Assembly (NCBI GenBank): GCA_023249645.1
Contig: JAHFCF010000004.1
Location: 821 to 64,820 of the forward strand
Source of the DNA: Elusimicrobiota bacterium
GTDB taxonomy: Bacteria; Elusimicrobiota; Elusimicrobia; UBA1565; UBA9628
DNA: 64,000 nt
Direction of reading: 5' to 3'
Made by a program: the position numbers and the translations under genes. The notes under the pieces are model-generated. The model saw only the letters and a program-made list of their open reading frames with translations. It was not told where the DNA came from and ran no database searches. Positions 4,862 through 48,884 of this stretch are shown piece after piece. The stretch's first letter is position 1; every line of letters starts with the position of its first letter.

Positions 4862-5652
4862 TGCAGCCTGTCTTGTTTTCTTTTTTGGGCTGGCGCTTCT
4901 ACAGCTACGGCCTGCTGATCGCTGTGGGCGGTCTGGCTGCGTACCGGCTCTGGCATTCGCAGCGGCGCTCGATGGGCCTGCGCAGCGACGAAGATTTTTG
5001 GCTCCTGCTCAATTTCCTCTTTTTGGGCGGATTCATCGGCGGCCGGATCCTTTATCTCGTGGAATATGTTCCTTATAGATGGCCTGAGCTCAAGGCGGCG
5101 CTCTTCTCCTTCAACAGCGGCTTTTCCGTGCTGGGGGCTTTCGGCGGGGTCGTGGCCGCTGTCTGGGTATTCGCTTGCTGGCGCCGATGCGGATTCCTGA
5201 GCATGCTCGATCACGTGTGCCTGGGCGCCGCGCTGTGGCATGTCTTCGGCCGCCTGGGCTGTTTTGCCGCCGGCTGCTGCTATGGACGGCCAACAGTCCG
5301 TGCCTGGGGCGTGCGGTTCACGGATCCGTCGTCCATGGTTCCCGTCGGCCTGCGGGGCGTCGCTCTGCATCCGACCCAGCTTTATGAAGCTGCCGGCGAA
5401 CTGCTGATTTTCCTGTGCCTATGGTTAGCGGTGCGGCCGTGTCTGGAGCGAGGACAGATTAAGCCTGGTTTTTTGACCGGAGCTTATTTCCTGGCTTACA
5501 GCATCCTGCGCTTCTCCTTGGAGTTCTGGCGCGGCGACACGGCGCCGGGCCTCGTTGGTTTATCCGCTGGACAGATTCTATCCCTTGGACTCGGATTCGC
5601 GGGCCTTGGACTGATCCTATGGAGGCGTGAAGCGCCATGCATCCTGTCCTGA
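4858..5652 (+). CDS. lgt: Prolipoprotein diacylglyceryl transferase (Lgt), paralog 1
   Basis: Multi-TM protein with GGRILY, HPTQLYE, RFSLEFWRGD Lgt-family blocks; signature region reads GRLGCFAAGCCYGRPT. Confidence 0.85.
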   Translation: MMQPVLFSFLGWRFYSYGLLIAVGGLAAYRLWHSQRRSMGLRSDEDFWLLLNFLFLGGFIGGRILYLVEYVPYRWPELKAALFSFNSGFSVLGAFGGVVAAVWVFACWRRCGFLSMLDHVCLGAALWHVFGRLGCFAAGCCYGRPTVRAWGVRFTDPSSMVPVGLRGVALHPTQLYEAAGELLIFLCLWLAVRPCLERGQIKPGFLTGAYFLAYSILRFSLEFWRGDTAPGLVGLSAGQILSLGLGFAGLGLILWRREAPCILS

Positions 5653-6422
5653 TCCAATACGGAGTCTTCAAGCTCCCCACCTACGGGGTCTTCGTCGCCC
5701 TGGGCTATCTGGCGGGCATCCTGTGGCTGCAGAGCCGCCGGCAGGAGATGGGCCTCGATGAGACGAAGTTCTGGCGCCTCATCTATGTCCTCTTCTTCGG
5801 CGCCATCGCCGGGGGAAAGCTCATGTACTGGGCCGTCTCCTATCGCGAGATCGTTTCCGGCCGGCTTTCCCTGTTCGGCGATCTGCGCTATGGCTTCGTC
5901 TTCTTCGGCGGCGTTCTGGGCGCGGCGGCGCTGGCCTGGGTCGCGAAATGGTGGCTCGGCTTCGAGTTCCTCTCCCTGGCTGATTATTTCAGCGCGGTTC
6001 TGCCCTTGGGTCATGCGGTGGGACGCCTGGGTTGTTTGGCGGCCGGGTGTTGCTATGGCCGGCCGACGACCCTGCCTTGGGGCGTTGTTCTGGGCGGAGA
6101 TCCGGCGAGTTCCACGCCTCTCGAACTCTGGGGAGTGCCGCTGCATCCCACGCAGATCTATGAGTCGCTGGCCAATCTCCTCATCTGGCTCTTTTTAGCT
6201 TTTGCCCTCCTGCCGAAGGTCACAAGTCGCCGCCTGAGAGCAGGAACCGTTTTCTTCTCCTACGCGATCCTCTACGGCTCGGCGCGCTTTGTCATCGAGT
6301 TCTTCCGTTACGATGACCGCGGGGCGTCGCTCTACCCCTTTTCCATCTCGCAGTGGATTTCCCTGGCCGCCATCTTCCTGGCGGCCGGCTTGCTGATGAA
6401 GCGGGGAGTCAAGGCCCGATGA
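5637..6422 (+). CDS. lgt: Prolipoprotein diacylglyceryl transferase (Lgt), paralog 2 (tandem duplicate)
   Basis: Same architecture: GGKLMY, HPTQIYE, RFVIEFFRYDD; signature GRLGCLAAGCCYGRPT; overlaps paralog 1 by 16 nt. Confidence 0.85.
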   Translation: MHPVLIQYGVFKLPTYGVFVALGYLAGILWLQSRRQEMGLDETKFWRLIYVLFFGAIAGGKLMYWAVSYREIVSGRLSLFGDLRYGFVFFGGVLGAAALAWVAKWWLGFEFLSLADYFSAVLPLGHAVGRLGCLAAGCCYGRPTTLPWGVVLGGDPASSTPLELWGVPLHPTQIYESLANLLIWLFLAFALLPKVTSRRLRAGTVFFSYAILYGSARFVIEFFRYDDRGASLYPFSISQWISLAAIFLAAGLLMKRGVKAR

Positions 6423-7381: not shown

Positions 7382-7395
7382 GATGATTTTTGTCA
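7382..7395. promoter_or_regulatory. ATGAT-N4-GTCAT inverted-repeat box upstream of Rieske/cyt b/multiheme operon
   Basis: ATGATttttGTCAT at 7382-7395 in AT-rich 115-nt intergenic gap; same box architecture recurs at 11641, 11663, 24934, 58689. Confidence 0.3.
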
Positions 7396-7479
7396 TTTTT
7401 CTTGAGCGCGATTATAACTATGATGCATCTTGAGGATATGGAACAATTTCCTTTATTCCCCGCCGGGAGGGCTTGAGTC

Positions 7480-7914
7480 GTGGAATCCATGACCCGCAAA
7501 AGATTCTTGAACCTGCTCCTGGGCGGCGGCGTGCTGGGCTGCCTCGGCTCGGTGATCTATCCCGTCCTGCGTTATCTGCTGCCGCCCGAACAGGTGGAGG
7601 CCGAGCCGGACACGCTGAAGGCCGGGACGATGAAGGATTTTCCCATCGGAGCCAGCAAGATCTTCAAGTTCGGCCGCCAACCCGTCATCGTGATCCGCGA
7701 CGTCAAGGGCGTCTTCCACGCCTTGACCGCGACGTGCACGCATCTCGACTGCATCGTACAATACAGCAAGGAAGCGGACCTGATCTGGTGCGCCTGCCAT
7801 AATGGGAAATACGATCTGAGCGGCAAGAACATCTCGGGTCCGCCGCCCCGGCCGCTGCAGGCGTTCACGGTGAGCGTCAAGGGCGAGGATGTCCTGGTGG
7901 TGAGGACGGCATGA
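7480..7914 (+). CDS. Rieske [2Fe-2S] subunit of a cytochrome bc/b6f-type complex
   Basis: CTHLDC...CACHNGKY Rieske boxes, N-terminal RKRFLN Tat-like signal; GGAGG RBS 9 nt upstream of GTG 7480. Confidence 0.9.
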   Translation: MESMTRKRFLNLLLGGGVLGCLGSVIYPVLRYLLPPEQVEAEPDTLKAGTMKDFPIGASKIFKFGRQPVIVIRDVKGVFHALTATCTHLDCIVQYSKEADLIWCACHNGKYDLSGKNISGPPPRPLQAFTVSVKGEDVLVVRTA

Positions 7915-8969
7915 ACGTTCTCAGCGGCCAGCTGCTGGATTGGGTCGATGAAAGGCTGCATGTGCGCCCGCTCATCGAGATGGCCCGGCATAAGGCCGTG
8001 CCGGTGCACCGGGGCAGCGTTTTCTATTACGCGGGCGGGGTCTGTCTCTTCCTTTTTATCCTGCAGGTGGCTTCGGGCATCCTCCTCTTGATGTACTATC
8101 GCGTGGGGGCCGACTCTTCCTATGAGAGCGTCCGGTACATCTCCGCGAAGGTGTCCTTCGGCTGGCTCATCCGTTCGGTCCACAGCTGGGGCGCCAACAT
8201 CATGATCTTCTTCGTGCTCACGCATATGTTCAGCGTCTTCCTGATGAAGGCCTTCCGCAATCCCCGGGAACTGACCTGGATGTCCGGCTGCGTCCTTTTG
8301 GGCCTGTCCATGGCTTTCGGATTCAGCGGGTATCTTCTGCCCTGGAACGAGCTGGCCTTCTTCGCCACGAAAGTGGGGACCGACATCATCGGCCAGGTCC
8401 CTCTCGTCGGCCATTGGATGCTCAAGATCGTCCGCGGCGGCGACGAGGTCACGGGGGCGACGCTTTCGCGATTCTTCGGCCTTCACGTGGCCGTGCTTCC
8501 GGCGCTGCTGTCTGTGACCATCGGGCTGCATCTGACTTTCGTGCAGATCCAGGGCATGGCCGAGGTGCGAGAGGCCAAGAAGACCATGCCTTTCTTCCCG
8601 AATTTCTTCCTGCGGGACGCCATGCTCTGGTTGGTGGTCTTGAACGCGGTCGCGATCCTGTCGGTCTTCTTCCCCTGGGAATTGGGCAAGAAGGCCGAGG
8701 CCTTGTCTTCGGCGCCGGCCGGCATCAAGCCTGAATGGTATTTCCTGTCGCAGTACCAGTTCCTCAAGCTCCTGCCGCCGCGCATCCTCCTGATCCCCGG
8801 CGAGCTCTGGGGGATCATGGTGCTCGGTACGACCGGAGGCCTTTTGTTCCTGACGCCCTTCTGGGAGAAAGCCTTGCCTGAAGAGAGGAAAGAGATCGTC
8901 GTCCGCCTGCTCGGTTGGGGAGGCCTGGCCGTGCTCCTGGCCATGACCCTGTGGGGGTACCTCTCATGA
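7911..8969 (+). CDS. Cytochrome b (fused cytochrome b6 / subunit IV type) of the bc complex
   Basis: 352 aa, multiple TM helices with conserved His pairs, PEWYF motif; ATGA overlap with Rieske gene. Confidence 0.9.
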   Translation: MNVLSGQLLDWVDERLHVRPLIEMARHKAVPVHRGSVFYYAGGVCLFLFILQVASGILLLMYYRVGADSSYESVRYISAKVSFGWLIRSVHSWGANIMIFFVLTHMFSVFLMKAFRNPRELTWMSGCVLLGLSMAFGFSGYLLPWNELAFFATKVGTDIIGQVPLVGHWMLKIVRGGDEVTGATLSRFFGLHVAVLPALLSVTIGLHLTFVQIQGMAEVREAKKTMPFFPNFFLRDAMLWLVVLNAVAILSVFFPWELGKKAEALSSAPAGIKPEWYFLSQYQFLKLLPPRILLIPGELWGIMVLGTTGGLLFLTPFWEKALPEERKEIVVRLLGWGGLAVLLAMTLWGYLS

Positions 8970-10201
8970 GGCGCGTGGCGATGACCGTCCTGCTCTCGAT
9001 GCTCACGGCGGGCCCGGCTGCGGCCGTCCAGAACCAATGCGCCGTCTGCCATGCGACTTTGGGCGAGAAGCATCAGGCCATCCTCAAAGCCTTCGACAAC
9101 GACATCCACCGGGAGCGGGGGCTGTCCTGCGATTCCTGCCACGGCGGCAACCCGGCTCTCGACGATGCGGCGGCGGCCATGAGTCCGGATGCGGGCTTTG
9201 TGGGCGCGCCCTCCAAGGCGGACATGCCCAAGTTCTGCGGAAAATGCCATTCCAATCCTGCTTACATGAAGAAGTTCAACCCCTCTCTCCCCGTCGACCA
9301 GGAGCTGACGTACTACACCAGCGTCCATGGACAGAGGCTCAAGGCCGGCGATGCCGCTGTGGCCGCCTGCGCGGACTGCCACATCGCGCACTCCATCAGG
9401 CCGGCCAAGGATCCCACATCCTCCGTCTATGTGAAGAACATCCCGCAGACCTGCGGCAAGTGTCACTCGAATGTCCAGCTGATGGCTCCCTACAAGATCC
9501 CCACCGATCAGCTCGCCCAGTACACCAGCAGCGTGCATGGCAAGGCTCTCTTTGAGAAAGGCGATACCGCCGCTCCGGTCTGCACCACCTGCCACGGCAA
9601 CCACGGAGCCGTCCCGCCGGGCGTCGAGAACATCGGCCAGGTCTGCGGCATGTGCCACGTGCACAACGCGGAGTTCTTCCAGTCCAGCCCCATGGCCAAG
9701 CCCTGGGCCAAACGCAAGTTCCACATGTGCGCCACCTGCCATCATGAGCACGACATCCAGCACCCGACCGCGCAGCTGCTTTCGCCGGACAACGGCATCT
9801 GCATGAAATGCCACAGTCCTTCATCCCCGCAGATCGCGGTCGCTTCCGCCATGCAGAAGAAGCTGGAGTCCATCGAGGACGCTTACCAGCGCGCCCAGAA
9901 GGACATTCTCGCGGCCGAGGAGAAGGGCATGGACATGGCCGAGGCTCGCGATCTTTGGGACGCCTCGCGCATGGCCATGTACCAGTCCAAGACGGCGATC
10001 CATCATTTCAGCGCGGCGAGTGTGGCCGAGGTGGCTGATCCGGGGATCCAGAACGCGGAGAAGGCCGATCAGGCGGCCAAGGATGCGGCGGCGGATTTCC
10101 AGAACCGCCGCATCGGTCTCGGGGTCGCCAGCCTGTTCATCACCTTCCTGGTGGTGGTCATCTACCTCAAGATCAAGGACTTCGAATCGTCCCAGGGCTG
10201 A
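8966..10201 (+). CDS. Nonaheme c-type cytochrome, C-terminally membrane anchored, third subunit of the Rieske/cyt b complex
   Basis: Signal peptide, 9 CxxCH motifs (CAVCH, CDSCH, CGKCH, CADCH, CGKCH, CTTCH, CGMCH, CATCH, CMKCH), C-terminal TM helix; ATGA overlap with cyt b. Confidence 0.85.
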   Translation: MRRVAMTVLLSMLTAGPAAAVQNQCAVCHATLGEKHQAILKAFDNDIHRERGLSCDSCHGGNPALDDAAAAMSPDAGFVGAPSKADMPKFCGKCHSNPAYMKKFNPSLPVDQELTYYTSVHGQRLKAGDAAVAACADCHIAHSIRPAKDPTSSVYVKNIPQTCGKCHSNVQLMAPYKIPTDQLAQYTSSVHGKALFEKGDTAAPVCTTCHGNHGAVPPGVENIGQVCGMCHVHNAEFFQSSPMAKPWAKRKFHMCATCHHEHDIQHPTAQLLSPDNGICMKCHSPSSPQIAVASAMQKKLESIEDAYQRAQKDILAAEEKGMDMAEARDLWDASRMAMYQSKTAIHHFSAASVAEVADPGIQNAEKADQAAKDAAADFQNRRIGLGVASLFITFLVVVIYLKIKDFESSQG

Positions 10202-10208
10202 TCGCTTC

Positions 10209-11630
10209 GTGAATCGGCACGAGAGGCTGGTCGTTCTCATCTGGGTCGCTGGCTCCTTGGCCGGATGCGCCGCCCCTTTGATGCAGGCGTCGACGAAGGG
10301 GGATGCCGAGGCCGCCAGGGCCTGGCTCGACAAGGGTGCGGACCCCGACGTGCGCGGAGGGTATCGCCATGGGGAGACCGCCCTCATGGCCGCCGCGGCG
10401 GGGGGGCATCTCCCCGTCGTCAAGCTTCTCGTGGAACGAGGAGCGAAGGTCAACGCCGCCGGCGATCGCGGAGAAACCGCTCTGATGCGGGCCGTGCATC
10501 ATGGATACCTGCCCATCGTCCAATACCTGATCGAGAAAGGCGCGGACGTCAATCACAAAGGGATACAGGGTACGACCGCCCTGCATTATGCGGCCTGGAG
10601 CAGCCGTGACGAGATCGTCCAATGCCTCTTGGACCATGGCGCTGACGTCAACGCCGCCGACGAGATGACGATCGGCCGTACGCCTCTGGGCCTGGCGGCC
10701 TATTTCGGCGATCAGGCCGTGGCGCAAGTTCTTCTGAGTCGCGGTGCGGATGCGCGCATCCTTGCGGCCAACGGCAAGCTGCCGGCGGAGCTCGCGACCC
10801 AGCGGGGCCATGGGGAGATCTCCCAAATGATCCGGCGCGCCATGGCCGGAGAATTACCCCAGGCGGCGGCATCGGCCCCGGCCTCCTTTTCCGATGAAGA
10901 CATGCCCCAATACCATCTCCGCCAGAAGCCGGACAATTACGCCGTTGTGGTGGGAGTCTCGAACTATGCGGGCCTGCCTCAGGCGCCTTTCGCGCGCCAC
11001 GATGCCCAAGCCGTGCGCGATCATCTCGCCGCCCTGGGCACCCCGCTCGACCACATCCTGTTTCTGACCGACAACGAGTCCACCCGGGCTGGTCTGGTCA
11101 AAACCCTGGAGGCGCGCCTTCCCCGTCTTGCTCAGGAACGCTCCACGGTTTTTTTCTATTTTTCAGGGCACGCGCTTCTCGAACCCAAGACCGGACGCAT
11201 CTTTTTGGCGCCCATGGATGGCGACGCCGAATTCCTTGAAGAGACGGCCTACCCGCTGGAGCGCCTCTCTCAGGATTTGGGAGGGCTCAAGGCGGCTCGC
11301 GTCCTGGCGATGTTGGAATGGGACTTCCCAGGAGTCCAGGAGCCGTCAGTCTCAACTCCAGCGCCCATGGGGAAAATCCTGGCATGGACATCTTCTCGTC
11401 CTGGGGAGTTTTCCGGTACGCTCCCGGAGCAGAGCCATGGGGCATTCACCTACTTCCTGCTGCGCGGTCTCAATGGCGCGGGCCAAGACGGCGCCGGCGC
11501 AATCACGGCCCGAGCCCTCTACGATTATGCATCGGCGCACGTGCAGGAGACAGCGCGCCGGCTCGGCCGCGAGCAGACTCCTCAATGGTCGGCCGTTTCC
11601 GCTGGAGCGGATTCTCTGAGATTCCGCTAG
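10209..11630 (+). CDS. Lipoprotein with ankyrin repeats fused to a caspase-like (peptidase C14) domain
   Basis: GTG start gives lipobox LAGC; >=5 ankyrin repeats (GETALMxAxxxGHLxxVxxLxxxGAxVN); C-terminal YAVVVGVSNY...FFYFSGHA caspase His-Gly block. Confidence 0.75.
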   Translation: MNRHERLVVLIWVAGSLAGCAAPLMQASTKGDAEAARAWLDKGADPDVRGGYRHGETALMAAAAGGHLPVVKLLVERGAKVNAAGDRGETALMRAVHHGYLPIVQYLIEKGADVNHKGIQGTTALHYAAWSSRDEIVQCLLDHGADVNAADEMTIGRTPLGLAAYFGDQAVAQVLLSRGADARILAANGKLPAELATQRGHGEISQMIRRAMAGELPQAAASAPASFSDEDMPQYHLRQKPDNYAVVVGVSNYAGLPQAPFARHDAQAVRDHLAALGTPLDHILFLTDNESTRAGLVKTLEARLPRLAQERSTVFFYFSGHALLEPKTGRIFLAPMDGDAEFLEETAYPLERLSQDLGGLKAARVLAMLEWDFPGVQEPSVSTPAPMGKILAWTSSRPGEFSGTLPEQSHGAFTYFLLRGLNGAGQDGAGAITARALYDYASAHVQETARRLGREQTPQWSAVSAGADSLRFR

Positions 11631-11640
11631 TTTTTTAAAC
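11607..11640 (+). terminator. Weak candidate intrinsic terminator after ankyrin-caspase gene
   Basis: agcgga-(11 nt)-tccgct stem followed by TAGTTTTTT. Confidence 0.25.
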
Positions 11641-11676
11641 ATGACAAATATCATCTTTAACCTTGATGTCTGTCAT
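11641..11676. promoter_or_regulatory. Two tandem ATGAY-N4-RTCAT boxes upstream of the Cyc2-like gene
   Basis: ATGACaaatATCAT (11641-11654) and TTGATgtctGTCAT (11663-11676), 70-100 nt upstream of start at 11743. Confidence 0.3.
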
Positions 11677-11742
11677 TCTCTTGAAAAATAGGAATTGTTA
11701 GATTCTTCAGCCGTTGAATTTTAAAAACAATCAGGGGGAAAC

Positions 11743-13092
11743 ATGCCAGAAGCACAAGGAACCGGGAGCAAAAAATTCGGAGTCGGCTTTATTCTCTTTT
11801 CGGTGCTTTTCACAGCCTGGCTTGTTCCGCCTCTGTATCGCGGGATCCAAGGGATCTGCCCCATGCGGCCGGGCCTTATTAAGGAAGCAGGGGCTGTCCC
11901 TGGCTTCGCCCGCAAATACGGCCTGAGCTGCTCACAGTGCCACACGGCCTGGCCCCTCCTCAATGATTACGGCCGGCAGTTCAAGCTCAACGGCTATGTG
12001 CGCGAACCGGGAAGCAAGGAAGGAGTTTTGGAAGGGTCGGGAGGGTATTGGACTGAGAAGATATTCCCCTGGGGCGTGGTGGCGCGTTCGCGGCCCTATG
12101 ACAAGAACACGACCGTCGACAGGGAGTTCCGCTTCCAACCTATCCAGGACGCGGACTTCTTCGTCGCTGGCGGGGACGCGGCCAAGCATATCTCCTGGTT
12201 CGGAGAGGTCGACGCCAACAACACGACCGACACGGCCTTCAGCGTGAACATGGCCGACATCCAAGCGGGCTACCATCCTAGCCAGTACCTCAACATCATC
12301 GCCGCCCGCCGCGGTTTCTTCGTCATGGATCCCTACCAGAACATCTCCAACTTCGGCAGCCCGACGATCACGGGACGCGCCATCGCCGGAGGCCAGACCG
12401 ACCAGGGCAACCTCTCGGGCAACGTGATGGACCAGACCACCCAGACCATGTTGGCTTTCGGTGAGGTGGACAAAGAGGGATTGGGAGCGCTCTACTACGC
12501 CGCGGGCATGTCGGCCGGAAACGCCAACGACACCGGCACGAGCGCCAAGGCCGGCAACCTGCGCCTGGCCTACGACACGCTCAAGGGCCTCGAGATCGGG
12601 GCCTTCGGCAGCTCGGGACGCGAATACAACGGGCTGGTGGATCAGAACGGCAACCAAGACCGGGTCAAGTTCACCAAATACGGGCTCGACTACACGCTCG
12701 AGGCCAAGGGCTTTGTCAGCCGCGGCGCCTGTCTCGTGTCCAACGAAAAGGACGAACAGTTGGCCAACTCAACGGTGGAGGTGGATGAGAACGGCAATCC
12801 CGTGATCAAGTCCACCACCAAGGCCGCCTATGCCGAACTTCTCTATGTCTATAAGAGGCAGGGCGACACGTTCCCGTTCCTCGTGCCCTTGGTGCGCGAG
12901 AACTGGTACACGACCTTCAACGGCAAGAGGAGCTTCAACTACGTCACGGCCCAGCTGGCCCATTACTTCGCTCCCAACATGAAGGGATTCGTGGAATGGT
13001 CCGGAGACACCAAGCAGGACTTGCAGGGCGTCAATAACGTGAGCTCTGCCAAGAGTTCGCGGTGGAGCCTGCAGTTCGAATTGGGCTTCTAG
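11743..13092 (+). CDS. Candidate Cyc2-like fused monoheme cytochrome c / outer-membrane beta-barrel porin
   Basis: Signal peptide, single CxxCH (CSQCH) within first ~70 aa, then ~380 aa of alternating amphipathic beta-strand-like sequence ending in ...LQFELGF (C-terminal Phe typical of OM barrels). Confidence 0.6.
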   Translation: MPEAQGTGSKKFGVGFILFSVLFTAWLVPPLYRGIQGICPMRPGLIKEAGAVPGFARKYGLSCSQCHTAWPLLNDYGRQFKLNGYVREPGSKEGVLEGSGGYWTEKIFPWGVVARSRPYDKNTTVDREFRFQPIQDADFFVAGGDAAKHISWFGEVDANNTTDTAFSVNMADIQAGYHPSQYLNIIAARRGFFVMDPYQNISNFGSPTITGRAIAGGQTDQGNLSGNVMDQTTQTMLAFGEVDKEGLGALYYAAGMSAGNANDTGTSAKAGNLRLAYDTLKGLEIGAFGSSGREYNGLVDQNGNQDRVKFTKYGLDYTLEAKGFVSRGACLVSNEKDEQLANSTVEVDENGNPVIKSTTKAAYAELLYVYKRQGDTFPFLVPLVRENWYTTFNGKRSFNYVTAQLAHYFAPNMKGFVEWSGDTKQDLQGVNNVSSAKSSRWSLQFELGF

Positions 13093-13111
13093 TCCGACAG
13101 GAGTTCTGTTC

Positions 13112-13639
13112 ATGAAAGGACGAGGCATCGCCGGAGGTCTGGCCATTGCGGCCGTGCTGTGGGGCGCGGGAGAGCTCCGGTCTCAGGATGAGGAGGTCAA
13201 GACATTCCCTTTCGACAAGGGTCCTGAGACCATCGACGTGTCGAGCTATCCCAAGGAACAGCAGGACAACTATCCGGTCTTCGCCGAGAAGTGCTCCAAA
13301 TGCCACACCCTGGCGCGGCCGATCAACTCGCCCTTCGCCCTGCCCGAGGAGTGGGATGCCTACGTCCACAAGATGCAGCACAAGAAGCGTTCAGGCGTGG
13401 ACGCTGACAGCGCCAAGACGATCATCGACTTCCTATCCTATGACTCCTCCGTGCGCAAGAAGGAGATCCTCGCCAAAAAGATCCAGGAGAAGAAGGACGG
13501 CAAGTACGACCTGCAGGCGGTGATGGACGCCGCCGAGAAGCAGGCCCAGACGGCGGCCCCGAAAGATGAATCGCAGCCCAAGGAAGCCGATAAATCTGCA
13601 GCGCCACAAAAGGCGGAGACTCCTAAAAAAGGCGACTGA
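13112..13639 (+). CDS. Periplasmic monoheme c-type cytochrome with Lys-rich C-terminal tail
   Basis: Signal peptide, single CSKCH motif, 175 aa; 20 nt downstream of Cyc2-like gene. Confidence 0.6.
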   Translation: MKGRGIAGGLAIAAVLWGAGELRSQDEEVKTFPFDKGPETIDVSSYPKEQQDNYPVFAEKCSKCHTLARPINSPFALPEEWDAYVHKMQHKKRSGVDADSAKTIIDFLSYDSSVRKKEILAKKIQEKKDGKYDLQAVMDAAEKQAQTAAPKDESQPKEADKSAAPQKAETPKKGD

Positions 13640-13758
13640 CTCTCATTTTTCATCTGACGACGCAAAAGTTTTTTCAAATAGAAGCTGTGCCTTGGAAAAA
13701 GTTCCCCATGGCGACTTGCGGAACGAAAAGTGCTTATTATTTCATCATTTCTTCGATG

Positions 13759-13782
13759 TTTACTTTCAGCGCTGAAAGTAAA
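13759..13782. promoter_or_regulatory. 24-bp perfect palindrome (TTTACTTTCAGC|GCTGAAAGTAAA) upstream of actA; candidate operator
   Basis: Perfect inverted repeat in the 236-nt AT-rich gap before ACIII operon, ~26 nt upstream of a TATAAT (13808-13813). Confidence 0.35.
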
Positions 13783-13875
13783 AACAAAAAAATCTTTCAA
13801 TTTTCAGTATAATTTCATCCCGAGGTCGCCATTTTTTTAGACAATCGGATTTTTAAGACCATTTCACTGGCAGCC

Positions 13876-14928
13876 GTGGTCTTTCTTCGGCTGACCACTC
13901 CGGCCTTGGCCGCGAAGGCTCCTTCCCAGATCCAAAAATCAGCCGCCCTTTTCATCATGAAATGCGCCAAGTGCCACACGATCGGCGCCGGCGACCGCGT
14001 GGGGCCGGATCTGAGGGGGGCCGCTGACAGGCATGAACGCGAGTGGCTCGTGAAATTCATCATGAGTCCGGGAGTCTTTCTGGCCTCTGACCCCGCGGCC
14101 CAGAAACTTCTGGAAAAATACAACGGCGTACGCATGGAGGAGACGCATCTGGCTCGCGCGGACGTGGAAGGCATCCTGGAATATCTCAAGGCCGCCAGCG
14201 CCGGCGGATTGTCCTCGCAGGCGCCTCTTGCCGTCGAGGAAGAGCCCATGCGTCTCAAAGTCCGAATGCCGGAGGAGGGTTTCTCCGTCTTCTGGCCGGG
14301 GCTGGCGTTCCTTTTCCTTCTTTTGGCAGCGGCGGCGGCGCTTTGGCAATTTAGAGGCCATCGGCCGGCGATAGCCCTCTTGTTCGTCTGCGCTGCACTC
14401 GCCTATTGGACCTTCGGCGGCCGGCGCTACTATCACCTTTTGGGGAATCAGCAGGGCTATGAGCCGGTCCAGCCCATCGCTTTCTCCCACGCGCGCCACG
14501 CCGGGAGCCTGGGCATCGCCTGCCTCTACTGCCATTATGCGGCGGAAAGAAGCGATGTGGCGGCCGTGCCTGCGGTCAACGTCTGCATGAATTGCCACGG
14601 CGCCGTGCGCAAGGCTTTCTCTGCCAAGACCCCTTCCCCCGAGATCGCCAAGCTGCTTGCCGTCTGGGAGAAGCATGAGGCCTCGATCCCCTGGGTCAGG
14701 GTGCATCAGCTGCCGGATTACGTCCATTTCACGCACAGGATCCACGTCAACAATAATATCCAGTGCCAGGAATGCCACGGCCCCGTGGAGACGATGGAGC
14801 GCGTCCGGCAGGCCAGCGCGCTCTCCATGGGCTGGTGCATCGCCTGCCATCGCCTCAAGACGGGCGACGCGCCGTCGCACTGGAAGCGCGCCAGCGGGCC
14901 GCTGGACTGTGCGGCCTGCCATTGGTGA
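13876..14928 (+). CDS. actA: Alternative complex III subunit ActA, hexaheme (extra N-terminal class I monoheme domain + pentaheme domain, two TM helices)
   Basis: CAKCH...GP.L class-I domain, two hydrophobic helices, then CLYCH, CMNCH, CQECH, CIACH, CAACHW; GTG start. Confidence 0.85.
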   Translation: MVFLRLTTPALAAKAPSQIQKSAALFIMKCAKCHTIGAGDRVGPDLRGAADRHEREWLVKFIMSPGVFLASDPAAQKLLEKYNGVRMEETHLARADVEGILEYLKAASAGGLSSQAPLAVEEEPMRLKVRMPEEGFSVFWPGLAFLFLLLAAAAALWQFRGHRPAIALLFVCAALAYWTFGGRRYYHLLGNQQGYEPVQPIAFSHARHAGSLGIACLYCHYAAERSDVAAVPAVNVCMNCHGAVRKAFSAKTPSPEIAKLLAVWEKHEASIPWVRVHQLPDYVHFTHRIHVNNNIQCQECHGPVETMERVRQASALSMGWCIACHRLKTGDAPSHWKRASGPLDCAACHW

Positions 14929-14936
14929 GAGAGAAC

Positions 14937-17813
14937 ATGCACGAGCCACCCCAGGACCCATTCAACGCCGGCGACAGCCTGACGCGGCGCGACTTCCTCA
15001 AGCTCCTCTCGACCAGCTTCGCGGCGCTCTCCCTGGTCGGCTGCAAACTGCGCCCGCCCAAGGAAAAGATCATCCCCTTCCTCCAACAGCCCGAGGAGTC
15101 GGTTCCCGGGCTGGCGTCCTGGTATGCCTCGACATGTTCCGGCTGCCCGGCCGCCTGCGGCGTGCTCGCCAAGAGCCGTGACGGCCGCCCCATCAAGCTG
15201 GAGGGAAATCCCGACCATCCTCTCTCTCGCGGCGGGCTCTGCGCGCGCGGCCAGGCCACGGTGCTCGACCTTTACGACTCCCAGAGGCTCCGGACGCCTT
15301 GGCAGGGCGCCTCTCCCATCTCCTGGGCCCAGGCGGATGCGGCCATCATCGCCAAGCTTAAGAAGTCCGACGCGATCCGGATCGTCAGCCGCACGGTCAG
15401 CAGCCCCTCGCTTCTGGCCGCCCTGGAAAAGTTCAAGCAGCGCTTTCCCGCCGCGCGACACATCGTCTACGAGCCCCTGTCGAGCTCGGCCATCGTGGAG
15501 GCCCACCACCGAACCCACGGCCAGGCCGTTCTGCCTCATTATCACTTCGACCGCGCGCGGGTGATCGTCAGCTTTGACGCGGATTTCCTGGGGACCTGGA
15601 TCTCCCCGGTCGAGTTCATCAAGGATTGGTCCGCCAACCGCCGCCTGGACAAGGAGCGCGGGCTCATGTCCTGGCACGCCCAATTCGAGCCCCGCCTCTC
15701 CTTGACCGGGACCAACGCGGATCTGCGCCGCCCGCTCAAGCCCTCCCAGGAATTCGCCACGTTGGCGGCCTTGGGCCGCATGGTCGCCCGTCGGGTGGGC
15801 TGGCAGGGCCCACTGCCCCCGGAGGAGGGGGCCCCCGGCGTGGCTGAGAGCCTCTTGGAGCACACCGCCGGCATGCTCACGGACGCCAAGCGGCGCAGCC
15901 TGGTCGTCAGCGGCTCCCAGGACCCTGACGCGCAGATGCTCGTCAATTGGATCAATGTCCTGCTGGACAATTACGGCTCCACCCTGGACATCGAGCGTCC
16001 CTCCCGGCAGAACCGCAGCGACGATGCGGCGATGGATCAGTTGATCGAAGAGATGAAGCGCGGCCAGGTCTCGGCCCTCCTGTGCCTGGACGCCAACCCC
16101 GCCTATGACCACCCGCGGGCCGCGGATTTTGTCCGCGCCATGGGCCGGGTGCAGCTTTCAATCGCCCTGGCCGACCGCAAAGACGAGACAGCCGCCCTCT
16201 GCGGTTTCCTCTGTCCGCTCTCCCACAGCCTGGAGTCTTGGGGCGATGCCGAGCCCGTGCCCGGCGTCCTGAGCCTGCAGCAGCCGCTGCTCTCCCCGAT
16301 CTTCGAGAGCCGCTCGGCTCTGGAGACCCTGCTGCGCTGGTCCGGCCAGAGCGTGAGCGCCTATGACTTCGTCAAGGAGCATTGGCGCCAGAACGTTTTT
16401 TCTCGCCGCAAAGGGAAGCAGGGCTTCACTTCTTTCTGGGATGAGGCCCTGCGGCGAGGGGCCGTCACGGTCGCGGCCGCTGCCTTGCCTGCCGGTCGAT
16501 TCGTCCCGGACGCGCTCTCCCGCCTGAAGCCTGCGCGACGTCCGGCCAAATCAGGCGACTTTGAGCTGGTGCCCTATGCCAGCACGGCCCTGGGAGATGG
16601 ACGCCAGGCCAACAATCCCTGGCTGCAGGAACTGCCGGATCCGATGTCCAGGGTCAGTTGGGGCAATTACGCCTCATTTTCCCCCGGCGACGCCCAAAGG
16701 CTTGGTCTGGAGGAGGGACGCGTGGTCCGGCTTTCGGTCCCCGGTCGGCAGGCGGAACTCCCCGTCCACATCCAGACGGGCCAGGCCGAAGGCGTGGTGG
16801 CAGCGGCCCTGGGCTATGGCCGCAAGAACGCGGGCCCCATCGCCGCCAACCATCCCATGGTCAAGATGCTGCCTTTGGAACGGGATCTTCTGGGTGGGGC
16901 CGACCTCTATGCCTGGCTCAAGACCCAGACCGTTTCCGTGACCGTGACTCCGGGACGCAGTCCCCTGGCCAAGGTCCAGATCTACGATTCCCTGACCGAT
17001 CCCCTGATGGGCCAGAAGCGTCCTTTTGTCCGCGAGACCACCCTGCAGGAGTACGTCCAGGACCCGCGCAGTGGCAATCCTGAAGTTCCTGAGGAGAAGG
17101 GTCTGTGGCCTCGCCATGAATACAAGGGACACAAATGGGGCATGGCCGTGGATCTCAATTCCTGCATGGGCTGCGGGGCCTGCGTCGTGGGCTGCCAGGC
17201 GGAGAACAACGTCCCGGTGGTCGGCAAGGCCGAGGTGCGCAAGAGCCGGGACATGGCGTGGATACGCATCGACCGCTACTATGAGGATGATCGGACGTCC
17301 TTCCAGCCCATCCTCTGCCAGCACTGCGACAACGCCCCCTGCGAGACCGTCTGCCCGGTCTTGGCCAGCGTCCACTCCACGGAGGGGCTCAGCATGCAGG
17401 TCTACAACCGCTGCGTGGGAACCCGCTACTGCAGCAACAACTGCCCCTACAAGGTGCGCCGCTTCAACTGGTTCGACTACGCGCACCAGGACCTGGTGCA
17501 GAACATGGCGCTCAACCCGGACGTCACGGTGCGATCGCGCGGCGTCATGGAGAAATGCTCCTTCTGCGTGCAGAGGATCTACTCGGCTAAATTCCAGGCC
17601 AAGCAGGAGGGGCGCCAGCTCAAGGACGGGGACGTCATCCCCGCCTGCGCCCAGAGCTGTCCGGCCGACGCCCTGGTCTTCGGGGATTTGAACGATCCCA
17701 ACAGCCGGGTCTCCCGCTTGGCGCGGGATTCGCGCAGCTATCGGGTGCTGGCCGAACTCGGCGTGGGACCGTCCATCTTCTACAGGACCAAGGTCCGTAA
17801 TCGGAGGGTCTAG
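14937..17813 (+). CDS. actB: Alternative complex III subunit ActB (molybdopterin-oxidoreductase-like domain fused to 4x[4Fe-4S] ferredoxin domain)
   Basis: Tat signal TRRDFLK, CSGCPAACG cluster, C-terminal CMGCGACVVGC / CQHCDNAPC / CSNNCPY ferredoxin motifs; ~958 aa. Confidence 0.9.
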   Translation: MHEPPQDPFNAGDSLTRRDFLKLLSTSFAALSLVGCKLRPPKEKIIPFLQQPEESVPGLASWYASTCSGCPAACGVLAKSRDGRPIKLEGNPDHPLSRGGLCARGQATVLDLYDSQRLRTPWQGASPISWAQADAAIIAKLKKSDAIRIVSRTVSSPSLLAALEKFKQRFPAARHIVYEPLSSSAIVEAHHRTHGQAVLPHYHFDRARVIVSFDADFLGTWISPVEFIKDWSANRRLDKERGLMSWHAQFEPRLSLTGTNADLRRPLKPSQEFATLAALGRMVARRVGWQGPLPPEEGAPGVAESLLEHTAGMLTDAKRRSLVVSGSQDPDAQMLVNWINVLLDNYGSTLDIERPSRQNRSDDAAMDQLIEEMKRGQVSALLCLDANPAYDHPRAADFVRAMGRVQLSIALADRKDETAALCGFLCPLSHSLESWGDAEPVPGVLSLQQPLLSPIFESRSALETLLRWSGQSVSAYDFVKEHWRQNVFSRRKGKQGFTSFWDEALRRGAVTVAAAALPAGRFVPDALSRLKPARRPAKSGDFELVPYASTALGDGRQANNPWLQELPDPMSRVSWGNYASFSPGDAQRLGLEEGRVVRLSVPGRQAELPVHIQTGQAEGVVAAALGYGRKNAGPIAANHPMVKMLPLERDLLGGADLYAWLKTQTVSVTVTPGRSPLAKVQIYDSLTDPLMGQKRPFVRETTLQEYVQDPRSGNPEVPEEKGLWPRHEYKGHKWGMAVDLNSCMGCGACVVGCQAENNVPVVGKAEVRKSRDMAWIRIDRYYEDDRTSFQPILCQHCDNAPCETVCPVLASVHSTEGLSMQVYNRCVGTRYCSNNCPYKVRRFNWFDYAHQDLVQNMALNPDVTVRSRGVMEKCSFCVQRIYSAKFQAKQEGRQLKDGDVIPACAQSCPADALVFGDLNDPNSRVSRLARDSRSYRVLAELGVGPSIFYRTKVRNRRV

Positions 17814-17819
17814 AGACCG

Positions 17820-19196
17820 ATGTCTGAAAAACATTTCTCAGTCCTGCGCGTGCCACTCGTCGACGGCGACAAGGATTGCCGGCAGGTCACCCGGGACATC
17901 TGCGCTCCCCTTCAAGTCGGCCCCACCCGCCTTTGGTACATCAGCTTCGCCGCCGCCGTGACGGCCTTGCTCATCGGCGTGACCGCGGTCACGGATCAGA
18001 TCTGGACCGGCATCGGGACCTGGGGCCTCAATAAGACGGTCGGCTGGTCCTGGGACATCACCAACTTCGTGTTCTGGGTCGGCATCGGCCATGCCGGCAC
18101 GCTCATCTCCGCCATCCTTTTCCTCTTCCGTCAGCACTGGCGCACCTCCATCAACCGTTCGGCCGAGGCCATGACCATCTTCGCCGTCATGTGCGCCGGA
18201 GTCTTCCCCGTCATCCACATGGGTCGGCCCTGGCTGGCCTATTGGGTCCTGCCCTATCCCAACCCCATGGGGCCTCTGTGGGTCAACTTCCGCTCCCCCT
18301 TGCTGTGGGATGTCTTCGCCATCAGCACCTATTTCACCATCTCGCTGACCTTTTGGTACGTGGGCCTTCTGCCGGACCTGGCCACCGCGGCCCGGGAGGT
18401 CGCCGAGCCTTGGCGGCGGCGCCTGTACAGCTGGCTGAGCCTCGGCTGGGACGGCTCCCAGAGGACCTGGTCCCACTACGAGAAGCTTTATCTGCTGCTG
18501 GCCGGACTGGCCACGCCGCTGGTCTTCTCCGTGCACACCATCGTCAGCTTCGACTTCGCCACCTCGATCGTCCCCGGCTGGCACACGACGATCTTCCCTC
18601 CCTACTTCGTCTGCGGCGCGATCTTCTCGGGCTTCGCGATGGTGCTCAGCCTCATGCTCATCGCGCGCCGGGTCATGAACTTCGAGGACTACATCACCCT
18701 GCGCCACATCGACGCGATGTGCAAGATCACGCTTCTCACCTCGCTCATCGTCGCTCTGGCTTACTCGACCGAGCTCTTCACCGCCTGGTACAGCGTCAAC
18801 CCTTACGAACGCTTCGCCTTCCTCAACCGCATCGAGGGCCCCTACCACTGGTTTTATCTGGTGATGATGACCTGCAACGTGGCCGTTCCCCAGGCCCTTT
18901 GGTCCAAGCGCGTGCGCACCACGCCCTGGGTGGTGTTTCTCATCTCGATCGCCATCAATATCGGCATGTGGCTGGAGCGCTTCGTGATCATCACGGTGTC
19001 CCTGCACCGGGATTTCCTGCCTTCCAGCTGGACGATGTACCATCCGACCTATATCGAGATCGCCACCTTCATCGGCAGCTTCGGACTCTTCTTCACCTGC
19101 TTCCTCCTTTTCTGCCGCCTGCTGCCGATGATCGCGATCAGCGAGATCAAGGGCGTGCTCCATCACGCGCGCCGCGCCCCGGGGGACGAGTCATGA
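17820..19196 (+). CDS. actC: Alternative complex III subunit ActC (NrfD/PsrC-family quinol-interacting membrane subunit)
   Basis: 458 aa polytopic membrane protein, NrfD-like; position after ActB. Confidence 0.9.
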
Positions 19197-19711
19197 ACCG
19201 CCTCTGGGTGGGGATCTTCGACTCGCACGAGCATCTGTTGCGCGCGACGCGCTTGGCCCGCCAGCGCGGCTTGACGATCCACGATACCTATGCGCCCTTC
19301 CCCATCCACGGCATGGATGAGGCCATGGGCCTGGAGCCGTCGCCCCTGGGATGGTTGTGCTTTCTCTTCGCCATGACAGGTCTGACCTTGGCGCTCTCAT
19401 TCCAATACTGGGTCTCGGTCTTCGACTGGCCCATGAACATCGGCGGAAAATCCTACAATGCCTCGCCCGCGCTGCTGCCCATCGCCTTCGAGTTCACCGT
19501 CCTGTGCGCCGGATTGGGCAGCGTGGCGGCCTTCCTGTTCCTGCGCCGGCTCTCCCCGGGCAAAAAGCCGGCCCTGGGCGGCTTGGGCGCTCTCGATGAC
19601 CGATTCCTGCTGGCCCTCCAGGCCGGGCCCGAGGCCTCCGCCGAAGAACTGCGCCGTTTCCTGCAGACGCAGGGGGCCTTGGATATTCACGAGGTGGCGC
19701 CAGACTCATGA
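19193..19711 (+). CDS. actD: Alternative complex III subunit ActD (DUF3341-type membrane subunit)
   Basis: [26 protein letters not shown]... with two TM helices; ATGA overlap with actC stop; only the in-frame 3' part of ORF 18191..19711 is real. Confidence 0.8.
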
Positions 19712-22056
19712 GGCGAAATCCCCTGCTGGCGGCAGGCCTTCTGCTCGCGGCGGCTGTCCTCACCTTCCTTCTGGCCGCCCGCCGCGACCTTAAGGAGCCG
19801 CACATCCACCTTTTCAGCGACATGATCACTTCTCCCGCCTACCACTCCCAAAGGCCCAATCCGGTTTTTCGCGACGGCCAGACCCAGCAGGCGCCGCCTC
19901 CCGGGACGATCCCCAGGGGATTTACGCCGTTTCATTACGGACCAGGCAGCGATGAGCGCGAGCGCGCCGGCAACGAGCTCAAGAACCCATTGGTGCCCAG
20001 CTATGAGGTCATGACTCGGGGCAAACATGTTTTTGAGAATTTCTGCGCCCATTGCCACGGACTCAAGGGGCGCGGCGATGGGCCCGTGGCCAGGGCTTTC
20101 CCTTCTTTTTCCTTTCCGGTCGCCAGCCAATCAGCCTACGCGCTCAAGGATGGGACTCTGTTCCACATCATCACCTGGGGCCGCAACCTCATGCCCTCGC
20201 ACTCTTCCCAGCTCTCCCAGGCGGATCGCTGGCAGCTCATCTATTATCTGCGCGACCTGCAGCGCCAGGAGATCGTGCGCCTGGGACCTCTGGCCGCCAT
20301 CCCCGAGGATCCGCGCCGGCGGGGCCTGGTCTCCAGGGATTACGGGCGCGAGCTCTTCGCCCAGAACTGCGCGGGCTGCCACGGGGAGGAGGGCCGCCAT
20401 CCCTTGCCGGGCATCCCCACCCTCCATGCTCCCAGCGTGCTGGCCATCGCCGAGGACAGCTATTATTGGGACATCATCAACCATGGGCGCCGCGGCACCC
20501 AGATGCAGGCTTGGAAGGATATCCTGACCGCCAGCCAGATCCAAAGCCTGATCGCCTATATCCGCTCATGGGCGACGCCGGTGACGGAACTCACCAAGAT
20601 CCTGGCTCAGCGCGGCGACTCCCAGCGCGGGCAGACGCTTTTTGCCCGGCAGTGCGCCGGCTGTCATGGAGCCGACGGCCGGGGAGGCATCGGGATCTCG
20701 CTCAAGGCCCCTTCGTTCATGGCGATCGTCTCGGATCAGTTCCTGCGCGACACCATCGCCATGGGCCGTGAGCACACGGCCATGCCCTCTTCCTATGATT
20801 TCAAGCCCGCGGATATCGCGGATATCATCGCGTACTTCCGCAGCTGGTCCGAGGCCGCTGCTGCCTATGTGGATGTGGCGCCCCTGATTTCGGCTGCTTC
20901 GGCATCGAACGGAGCCAAGCTCTTTCAGGCCCGATGCGCGGGCTGTCATGGAGCCAAGGGGGAAGGCGGGATCGGATCGCGGCTCAACAGCGACGGCTTT
21001 TTGGCCATGGCTGACAATAAATTCCTCTATCGCGTGATCGTGGAAGGCCGGCCCGGCACCGAGATGCCCGCCTGGCGCTTCCTCTCAGCCACCGAGCTCG
21101 CCGGGCTCATCGCCCAGATCCGCGCGTGGCAGAAGTCTCCCTCCGTGGTTTTGTCCACCGGGCCGGTCAAGGGCCGCTCTGAGTTCGGCGAAGTCCTCTA
21201 TCAGAAGGAATGCATCAAGTGCCACAGGGCCGGCGGGGCCGGCGATCTGGGAACGCAGATCGGCAATCCCGCCCTCCTGTCACAGGTCAGCGACCAGTTC
21301 CTTTGGCGGACGATCGCCTATGGCAAGAAGGGCACGGAGATGCAGGGCTTCCTCAAGAGGACGCGCAACCCGCTGCCCGAGGAGGATATCGGCCATCTCG
21401 TCGCCTATCTGCGGCAGATGCAAAAAAATCCGCCGCAGGAACTGCTCAAACGAACCTATTCCTGGGCCTCAGCAGCGGACGGAAAAAAAGTTTTCGAGGG
21501 TAAGGGCAAGTGCTTCAAGTGCCACGGGCTCCATGGGGAAGGCGGCAGCGGACCTTCCTTGGGAGGTCCCGGATTTCAGAGAGTGGCTTCAGCCGGCTTC
21601 ATCGCGGCCACGCTGGTGCTGGGCCGCGACAACACGGAAATGAAATCCTATGTCCGCGGCGGCGATGTCCAGCTCGGCGAGGAAGACATCGAGAACGTCT
21701 CGACCTATGTCCGCGGCTTCGAGAAGAATCCGCCTGCCGCGCCCCGGCAGGTGGACCGCTCCGAGATCCAGGTCAAGGCAGGACGCGCTCTCTTCCTGCA
21801 GAACTGCGCCAAGTGCCATGGCCGGCAGGGGCAGGGCTTGCACGGTAAGAAGGAGGGCGAGTTCGCGCCTTCCCTGAACAACGTGGATTTCCTCAGGGCG
21901 GCCGATGACAACTTCCTGCTGGCCACCATCGCCCTGGGCAGGCCCGGTACGCCCATGCCGTCCTTCGCCAAGGGCGACGTCGCAGTCCAACCGCTCCAGG
22001 CCGAGCAGATCCGCCAGGTGGTGGCGTTCATCCGGTCCTGGGAGAGGGGAAAGTGA
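19708..22056 (+). CDS. actE: ActE-like cytochrome c subunit extended by six additional class I monoheme cytochrome c domains (7 CxxCH total)
   Basis: N-terminal TM anchor and ActE-like region with CAHCHG, then CAGCHGEEG, CAGCHGADGRGG, CAGCHGAKGEGG, CIKCHRAGGAGD, CFKCHGLHGEGG, CAKCHGRQGQG each followed by G(T)xMP Met-ligand motif; ATGA overlap with actD. Confidence 0.85.
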   Translation: MRRNPLLAAGLLLAAAVLTFLLAARRDLKEPHIHLFSDMITSPAYHSQRPNPVFRDGQTQQAPPPGTIPRGFTPFHYGPGSDERERAGNELKNPLVPSYEVMTRGKHVFENFCAHCHGLKGRGDGPVARAFPSFSFPVASQSAYALKDGTLFHIITWGRNLMPSHSSQLSQADRWQLIYYLRDLQRQEIVRLGPLAAIPEDPRRRGLVSRDYGRELFAQNCAGCHGEEGRHPLPGIPTLHAPSVLAIAEDSYYWDIINHGRRGTQMQAWKDILTASQIQSLIAYIRSWATPVTELTKILAQRGDSQRGQTLFARQCAGCHGADGRGGIGISLKAPSFMAIVSDQFLRDTIAMGREHTAMPSSYDFKPADIADIIAYFRSWSEAAAAYVDVAPLISAASASNGAKLFQARCAGCHGAKGEGGIGSRLNSDGFLAMADNKFLYRVIVEGRPGTEMPAWRFLSATELAGLIAQIRAWQKSPSVVLSTGPVKGRSEFGEVLYQKECIKCHRAGGAGDLGTQIGNPALLSQVSDQFLWRTIAYGKKGTEMQGFLKRTRNPLPEEDIGHLVAYLRQMQKNPPQELLKRTYSWASAADGKKVFEGKGKCFKCHGLHGEGGSGPSLGGPGFQRVASAGFIAATLVLGRDNTEMKSYVRGGDVQLGEEDIENVSTYVRGFEKNPPAAPRQVDRSEIQVKAGRALFLQNCAKCHGRQGQGLHGKKEGEFAPSLNNVDFLRAADDNFLLATIALGRPGTPMPSFAKGDVAVQPLQAEQIRQVVAFIRSWERGK

Positions 22057-24933: not shown

Positions 24934-24947
24934 ATGACATTTGTCAT
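24934..24947. promoter_or_regulatory. Perfect ATGACatttGTCAT box in divergent region between the NapC-like cytochrome gene and gltA
   Basis: 14-bp box of ATGAY-N4-RTCAT type in 137-nt AT-rich divergent promoter region. Confidence 0.3.
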
Positions 24948-25000
24948 TTTTTTGGACAGGTGATTAGCAATATCATTGGAGAGCAGTCCCAGGAGGCATT

Positions 25001-26289
<1,289 letters not shown>

Positions 26290-26293
<4 letters not shown>

Positions 26294-33744: not shown

Positions 33745-33767
33745 ACGAAGCCCTCCCTTACAGTAAT

Positions 33768-36806: not shown

Positions 36807-36828
36807 GGCATTATCCTCGCTGTGTCCT

Positions 36829-37695: not shown

Positions 37696-37808
37696 TTTTG
37701 ATGTCCTCCGTAATTTATGATGAAACATTAAGATTAGTATGACAAAAAGGTCATTTTTTCACAATGACGGACATTATGGAAAAAGGATGACGTTCGCCGG
37801 TTAAATCA

Positions 37809-45407: not shown

Positions 45408-45410
45408 GCC

Positions 45411-48875: not shown

Positions 48876-48884
48876 GAGCCCATC

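Follow-up and report, generated by a model that had tools for sequence, protein, structure and literature searches.

Our study concerns a 64,000-nucleotide stretch of DNA from an Elusimicrobiota bacterium (positions 821 to 64,820 of contig JAHFCF010000004.1, GenBank assembly GCA_023249645.1; henceforth the window), in which a gene at positions 11743-13092 of the plus strand encodes a 449-residue fusion of a monoheme cytochrome c with a 16-strand outer-membrane porin. By its motifs and its architecture this cyc2-like protein is a member of the Cyc2 family. No genetic marker is used more widely than Cyc2 to detect Fe(II) oxidation by microbes; the Elusimicrobiota are known chiefly as fermenters, lately also as respirers of oxygen or nitrate, and are not established iron oxidizers. 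We propose that this cytochrome-porin, in which an N-terminal monoheme c module precedes an OprP-like barrel, probably provides these bacteria with an Fe(II)-oxidizing route, an activity suggested by family membership and by synteny. The cyc2-like gene and the cytochrome gene that follows it, often found with alternative complex III (ACIII) or a caa3 oxidase, offer a concrete and testable pathway of electron uptake for the phylum; if it operates as proposed, Elusimicrobiota of soil and groundwater would join the candidate iron oxidizers.

A monoheme cytochrome module fused to a sixteen-strand porin

The protein was compared with the features by which Keffer et al. (2021; PMC8406198) define the family. 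Members of the family have a signal peptide, one CXXCH motif, a length of at least 365 residues (typically more than 400) and a 16-strand porin structurally homologous to OprO and OprP, and they carry the consensus AxPxFAR[Q/K][T/Y]...CXXCH...PxL, which Keffer et al. (2021) described as unique to Cyc2. The 449-residue window protein displays the single N-terminal CXXCH, both flanking motifs, the length and the OprO/OprP-like barrel of about 16 strands. Its heme c attachment site, CSQCH (C63-H67, nt 11929-11943 of the plus strand, as for the other features of the gene), is the sole CxxCH in the chain, as an earlier reading made from the sequence alone (the sequence-only reading) had stated, and C63, C66 and H67 do not vary in any of 91 sequences. 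The first part of the consensus is present as A51-V-P-G-F-A-R-K-Y59 (11893-11919), identified by sequence and conservation; three residues (G-L-S) separate Y59 from C63, a spacing equal to that in the other motif-bearing groups (P0106-P0115). The PxL motif, P71-L-L73 (11953-11961), lies four residues past the CXXCH (H67-T-A-W-P71), and both P71 and L73 show conservation of 90% or more. H178, which is also conserved, is among the candidates for the sixth heme ligand.

The AlphaFold2 (AF2) model of the protein (pLDDT 88.7, pTM 0.83) arranges residues ~110-449 (12070-13089) in a beta-barrel of 16 strands, the number anticipated by the sequence-only reading, with a ...QFELGF beta-signal at its end. 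The C-terminus (...WSLQFELGF) alternates hydrophobic residues and closes with the phenylalanine that had been noted. The description of the barrel as rich in Gly, Tyr and Asn holds for Gly and Asn, which are abundant together with Ala and Thr, and fails for Tyr, which is outside the eight commonest residues. The closest structural match of the barrel is OprP, followed by general porins. Assignment to the phosphate-selective porins O/P (PF07396) was considered and rejected on account of the invariant heme motif and the lack of a Pfam match: the protein is only 12% identical to the OprP/OprO porins (PDB 2O4V, 4RJW) and has no match to Porin_O_P, and OprP lacks a heme module.

Scans of the 449-residue protein against Pfam and NCBIfam returned no match, neither library containing a Cyc2 model, and a profile search of the PDB sequences gave no meaningful match. 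The 115 homologues with conserved motifs, together with conserved synteny, rule out a chance open reading frame (ORF), and several public assemblies hold a predicted protein (P0001) identical to the product of ORF 11743-13092; ERZ27279563 and SRR14366756 derive from samples that contain it. Every sequence and fold criterion tested supports the original proposal, a fused cytochrome-porin of the Cyc2 type next to a periplasmic monoheme cytochrome.

Relationship to other cytochrome-porins

A direct search with the cyc2-like protein recovered these 115 proteins, about 100 of them full-length relatives. All homologues with a named organism belong to the Elusimicrobia or Elusimicrobiota, with the exception of one distant gammaproteobacterial sequence, and all are annotated as hypothetical proteins. 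The superfamily is far larger: when 1.84 billion cluster representatives were searched with a profile, 4,216 clusters at 50% identity had E<=1e-3. Pfam Porin_4 is matched by five family members and Porin_O_P (PF07396) by one of 91 relatives.

The cytochrome-porins recovered from outside the Elusimicrobiota differ from the Elusimicrobiota protein to the extent that the relation between their barrels is visible only by profile methods. Matches to them by phmmer span just the N-terminal 8-21% of the protein and leave the barrel without detectable pairwise similarity, whereas profile alignment by hhalign covered 354 columns of one motif-bearing cytochrome-porin group (99.8% probability, E 3.8e-28) and 239 columns of a second (99.3% probability, E 1.2e-20). 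At the level of sequence profiles, this comparison shows that homology to the two groups reaches well past the heme module. Of the groups that share the motif, one (A4) is large and mostly metagenomic, its few named members being metagenome-assembled genomes (MAGs) of Acidobacteriota, Thermoanaerobaculia and Hyphomicrobiales; another (A5) is drawn mainly from Steroidobacteraceae, other Gammaproteobacteria and Zoogloea, with Ca. Electronema among its members. The matches listed for these two groups contain no Gallionellaceae, Zetaproteobacteria, Acidithiobacillus or Leptospirillum.

A conserved insert ahead of the heme motif

The N-terminus of the protein begins with a hydrophobic helix (residues ~9-35, KKFGVGFILFSVLFTAWLV, 11767-11847; residues 9-35 are helical in the AF2 model), which is presumed to be the core of the signal peptide. 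An AxA↓VP site (here AGA↓VP) is conserved further along, and the CxxCH begins 12 residues after it. Placement of the CxxCH inside the cleaved signal peptide would have contradicted the sequence-only reading; the heme motif is located past both the helix and the AxA↓VP site and therefore falls outside the presumed signal peptide.

Between the helix and the AxA↓VP site there is an insert of about 25 residues, which contains the clade-specific motif C39-P-M-R-P43 (11857-11871). In the core Elusimicrobiota clade the insert follows the pattern W-x2-P-P-x2-H-x3-[HR]-x-C-P-[VIL]-R-P-D-G, represented in the window protein by W26, P29-P30 and C39-P-M-R-P43 (residues 26-43, nt 11818-11871). In outgroup members, which lack it, the signal peptide is an ordinary one that terminates right at AxA↓[VI]P. 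The AF2 model gives the region a pLDDT below 50. The insert does not form a lipobox.

A conserved periplasmic cytochrome partner

The gene at 13112-13639 (plus strand) begins 19 nt past the cyc2-like gene, one fewer than the 20 nt of the sequence-only reading, and has its own AGGAG ribosome-binding site. As that reading had described, it encodes a small monoheme cytochrome c with one CSKCH (nt 13292-13306); the product is a secreted protein of 175 residues with a signal peptide and a tail rich in Lys, Glu, Ala and Pro. The residues C61, C64, H65 and M88 (Met88, nt 13373-13375) are invariant across the partner family. AF2 models the protein as helical, and over residues ~41-140 the block-mean pLDDT is 85-97. 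Its CXXCH motif, distal Met, all-helical fold and signal peptide are those of a class I monoheme cytochrome c. The best Foldseek matches of the model are 3a9f (cytochrome cz, C-terminal domain) and 2blf_B (SorB), at a probability of 0.99 with non-significant E-values; matches to hidden Markov models (SorB, the heme domain of quinohemoprotein amine dehydrogenase (QH-AmDH) and c-551) are all below cut-off.

The partner family comprises 147 matches, of which the closest named are from Elusimicrobiota; more distant relatives of about 130 residues include one from a Rhodothermales MAG. At least 23 pairs of cyc2-like and partner genes share a contig, some of these contigs being merely 2-7 kb long, and in three NCBI MAGs the pair has consecutive locus tags. 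The partner cytochrome is a conserved neighbour of the cyc2-like gene.

Genomic context of the gene pair

The pair is located between two sets of respiratory genes. Upstream is a complete bc-type complex (7480-10201, plus strand): the Rieske protein is encoded at 7480-7914, cytochrome b at 7911-8969 and, at 8966-10201, a 9-heme cytochrome c that has a transmembrane helix at its C-terminus. Downstream are the genes for ACIII, ActA-F (13957-23216, plus strand): ActA (13957-14928; six hemes in the 13876-14928 ORF), ActB (14937-17813), ActC (17820-19196), ActD (19193-19711), a 782-residue protein that occupies the ActE position and contains seven cytochrome c domains (19708-22056), and an ActF-like subunit (22053-23216). 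The sequence-only reading placed the cyc2-like gene directly between the two complexes; ACIII does lie downstream and the bc genes upstream, but a gene for an ankyrin-repeat and caspase-domain protein with an LAGC lipobox (10209-11630, plus strand) intervenes on the bc side. An ankyrin-repeat protein gene (12068-13468, minus strand) also adjoins the cyc2-like homologue in locus L089. The further claim that this position is the context reported for cyc2 was overstated: cyc2 belongs to the rus operon in Acidithiobacillus, and few lineages of Zetaproteobacteria have ACIII.

Synteny was compared over nine loci, namely the window and eight fetched loci. In the window, L001 and L006 the pair is followed directly by ACIII, including the 781/782-residue seven-domain cytochrome; in L004, ACIII and a caa3 oxidase operon are immediately upstream of the pair; in L005 and L091 a multiheme/molybdopterin/FeS/NrfD complex is found within 2-8 kb; and L003, L089 and L090 have neither ACIII nor such a complex nearby. 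ACIII therefore adjoins the cyc2-like gene in four of the nine loci, once together with a caa3 oxidase. The subunit in the ActE position, with its seven tandem class I cytochrome c domains (seven CxxCH, 781/782 residues), is kept in three loci, its coordinates outside the window being 17816-20164 in L001 and 17808-20153 in L006.

Further electron-transfer genes in the window

Other genes for electron transfer are encoded beyond ACIII. On the minus strand, a 10-heme cytochrome of the DmsE/MtrA family (36829-37728; TIGR03508 score 233, cut-off 192) is directly upstream of a gene for a 663-residue MtrB/PioB-like porin (34872-36863; weak Pfam match), and a c7-type triheme cytochrome (33361-33780) follows hemA. 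From their predicted products, the genes at 34872-37728, together with 33361-33780, look like a second extracellular electron transfer module of the MtrAB/PioAB/MtoAB type. The minus strand also encodes a 13-heme protein (23217-24863) whose N-terminus is NrfH/NapC-like and membrane-anchored, and an 11-heme protein (40336-42378) to which a cytochrome b561/FdnI-like membrane domain is fused. Adjoining the latter are the system II cytochrome c biogenesis genes for ResB (39321-40352) and CcsA (38554-39525). On the plus strand, genes for HdrD-like (CCG domains) and HdrA-like flavoprotein/FeS proteins precede those for both subunits, small and large, of a NiFe hydrogenase (44013-50408); these are a possible alternative electron source or sink for the cytochrome network. 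Genes of the tricarboxylic acid (TCA) cycle are also present within the window.

Candidate regulatory sites

Two palindromic boxes of the form ATGAY-N4-RTCAT had been described upstream of the cyc2-like gene. The first, ATGACAAATATCAT (11641-11654), is exact and is located about 100 nt upstream of the start as a candidate operator of the CRP/FNR family; the second, TTGATGTCTGTCAT (11663-11676), is imperfect, with one mismatch. Three exact boxes were observed in the window against 0.19 expected, and all three are intergenic and upstream of cytochrome operons: at 7383-7396 (Rieske/bc), at 11641-11654 (cyc2-like) and at 24934-24947 (13-heme gene). A one-mismatch box at 37764-37777 is upstream of the decaheme gene. 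Elsewhere, an exact box precedes the cyc2-like operon in L003 (9329-9342) and in L091 (about 163 nt before the gene). A 5-4-5 geometry is typical of FNR/CRP sites, and the window encodes a CRP/FNR-family regulator (37809-38564, minus strand) for which the box may be the operator.

No sigma-54 promoter was found upstream of the cyc2-like gene in the window, and a scan for sigma-70 promoters and terminators over 11560-13950 gave only background levels. In two other loci a sigma-54-type promoter (TGGCA-N6-TTGC) stands before the cyc2-like start, at about 55 nt in L006 and about 80 nt in L091. In L005, L006, L089 and L091 the cyc2-like operon is flanked by genes for a histidine kinase and for a sigma-54 activator of the NtrC type; L089 and L091 also have, close by, a gene whose product contains a sigma-54 DNA-binding domain.

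Discussion

Comparison of the Elusimicrobiota protein with characterized cytochrome-porins highlights both its conformity and its peculiarities. It shares with Cyc2PV-1 of Mariprofundus ferrooxydans PV-1, a Cluster 1 member, a presumed signal sequence, the one CXXCH, the AxPxFAR[Q/K][T/Y] and PxL motifs, the barrel of about 16 strands, the length class of ~430-480 residues and structural homology to OprO/OprP, OprP being the homologue cited for Cyc2PV-1 (PMC8406198). The Elusimicrobiota clade differs in the additional conserved Cys-Pro-x-Arg-Pro insert before the motif. In its divergence and the low sequence conservation of its barrel the protein resembles the fused cytochrome-porins outside the Proteobacteria, Leptospirillum Cyt572 and Cyc2 Cluster 3, to which it is likened by description. 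In Acidithiobacillus, cyc2 comes first in the rus operon (cyc2-cyc1-cup-coxBACD-rus), followed by cyc1 and the cox genes. The Elusimicrobiota locus is similar to the A. ferrooxidans operon in that the cytochrome-porin gene is followed immediately by a gene for a periplasmic c-type cytochrome and that respiratory complexes are in the neighbourhood, with a caa3 oxidase operon adjacent in L004. It is different in that the partner is a monoheme, cytochrome cz/SorB-like protein and not a diheme c4 cytochrome such as Cyc1, no rusticyanin or Cup gene is seen here, and the window has ACIII in place of the cox genes.

A Cyc2-like gene in the Elusimicrobiota has precedent. Grettenberger and Hamilton (2021; PMC8357290) identified one by BLAST and phylogenetic tree in an acid mine drainage genome, Elusimicrobiota MAG 13, and the MAG was abundant where Fe(II) was 403 uM. 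Their report concerns the same phylum and draws the same inference, from a Cyc2-like gene to possible Fe(II) oxidation; it differs in covering one MAG and does not deal with regulation, with a partner cytochrome, with synteny to ACIII or with the N-terminal insert. The main comparative study of free-living Elusimicrobia noted ACIII in lineage IV and made no mention of iron, porins or multiheme cytochromes. The present find is sound and not unprecedented; the partner cytochrome, the linkage to ACIII, the N-terminal insert and the shared operator sequence are previously undescribed.

Our structural and genomic comparisons suggest a model for the activity of this system. Following the Cyc2 model, dissolved Fe(II) would enter the narrow pore of the barrel and be oxidized at the single heme. 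The electron would then pass to the presumably co-transcribed periplasmic monoheme cytochrome, which is cytochrome cz/SorB-like with predicted His/Met ligation; we infer this transfer from the 19-nt spacing and the conserved adjacency of the two genes. From there, synteny points to two possible onward routes, one running downhill into a cytochrome c oxidase, the other uphill by way of ACIII or the bc complex into the quinone pool. Expression of the cyc2-like operon is probably under the control of a regulator of the CRP/FNR type, which would act at ATGAC-N4-GTCAT-like boxes common to other cytochrome operons.

A genuine Cyc2-family cytochrome-porin could also have a physiological role other than lithotrophic Fe(II) oxidation, which we regard as possible if somewhat doubtful. 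In one version electrons would flow outwards, from quinol through ACIII or the bc complex to the small cytochrome, the heme of the porin and finally a soluble acceptor outside the cell, such as chelated Fe(III) or a redox shuttle; in another, the protein would accept electrons from a different dissolved donor such as Mn(II), detoxify Fe(II) or act in redox sensing. Synteny with a quinol:cytochrome c oxidoreductase is silent on the direction of flow, and the window has an abundance of proteins typical of an outward path in the decaheme cytochrome with its MtrB/PioB-like porin, the 13-heme NrfH/NapC-like protein and the 11-heme cytochrome b fusion, as well as sources of electrons in the TCA-cycle genes and NiFe hydrogenase, alongside Hdr-like proteins. 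The organism may on this evidence be an organotroph or hydrogenotroph with outward extracellular electron transfer. Several other observations weigh in the same way against an Fe(II)-oxidizing route. The function of the diverse Cluster 3 homologues is the most uncertain in the family (Keffer et al., 2021; PMC8406198), and Cyc2 homologues occur in many organisms not known as iron oxidizers, including nitrifying Nitrospirales and an Mn(II) oxidizer, for which a role in Mn(II) oxidation has been proposed. The closest relatives outside the Elusimicrobiota are from Acidobacteriota, Steroidobacteraceae, Zoogloea and cable-bacteria genomes, which are not classic iron oxidizers. Adjacency to ACIII is missing in three of the nine loci (L003, L089 and L090), and in Zetaproteobacteria ACIII is confined to a few lineages and has been judged not to be required for iron oxidation. 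The conserved insert makes the signal-peptide cleavage site of the protein atypical, and the FNR-like boxes and the CRP/FNR regulator hint that oxygen or redox state, and not iron, is the controlling signal. Against all this stands the fact that every biochemically tested member of the family (A. ferrooxidans Cyc2, Leptospirillum Cyt572 and Cyc2PV-1) oxidizes Fe(II). A narrow pore around a single buried heme is believed to let in only small dissolved ions such as Fe2+, which disfavours bulky chelates and shuttles as acceptors, and in L004 the gene comes immediately after a caa3 oxidase operon, an association with oxidase genes also seen in the rus operon. We retain Fe(II) oxidation as the probable function of the protein.

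Two readings that deny the protein this type of chemistry fare much worse. It is very improbable that it is an ordinary diffusion porin for phosphate or other anions in which the N-terminal CxxCH is incidental or non-functional; such a porin would explain the structural match to OprP and then to general porins, the few relatives that match Pfam Porin_4 or Porin_O_P, and the lack of a cytochrome Pfam match, but it leaves unexplained the invariance of C63, C66 and H67 in 91 sequences with FARKY and PxL on either side, a heme module common to thousands of proteins from other phyla, and the conserved cytochrome c gene next door; ResB and CcsA, encoded in the window, would moreover supply system II cytochrome c maturation. 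Scarcely credible is the proposal that the protein is the porin half of an MtrAB/PioAB/MtoAB-type complex, sheathing a separate multiheme cytochrome. Multiheme cytochromes are indeed encoded nearby (the 9-heme protein upstream and ActA downstream), yet a porin of that type needs about 26 strands to sheathe a decaheme cytochrome and the barrel here has 16, it carries a heme of its own, and the window holds a separate MtrB/PioB-like porin with its own decaheme at 34872-37728. Membership of that family was rejected on the strand count.

Beyond the Cyc2-family assignment, a more far-reaching interpretation, which we consider rather unlikely as a whole, would make the Elusimicrobiota proteins a distinct Cyc2 subfamily. 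In this interpretation the insert would be kept in the mature protein, its Cys serving as an extra heme ligand or cross-link or the segment as an unconventional anchor; the porin, the partner and the ACIII with its seven-domain cytochrome would form one hard-wired module; and free-living Elusimicrobiota would be lithotrophic or bidirectional iron cyclers, in which this module is co-regulated with MtrAB-like and multiheme systems by the CRP/FNR-type regulator. Whichever interpretation applies, the partner cytochrome and the N-terminal insert provide biochemical handles on the hand-off of electrons from a single-heme porin to the periplasm. The significance of the find is limited by the facts that Cyc2 homologues are already very widespread, that one case in the Elusimicrobiota has been published, and that function is not readable from sequence alone.

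Other features of the window

The minus-strand ORFs at 24944-28261 were considered as possible partners of the system and dismissed as spurious; they overlap plus-strand genes that their translations show to be citrate synthase-like and phosphoenolpyruvate carboxykinase-like, and the four of these ORFs that were scanned had no Pfam match. No Rfam families were found in the window. Upstream of the bc-type complex, two genes for prolipoprotein diacylglyceryl transferase (Lgt) are arranged in tandem on the plus strand, at 4858-5652 and 5637-6422.

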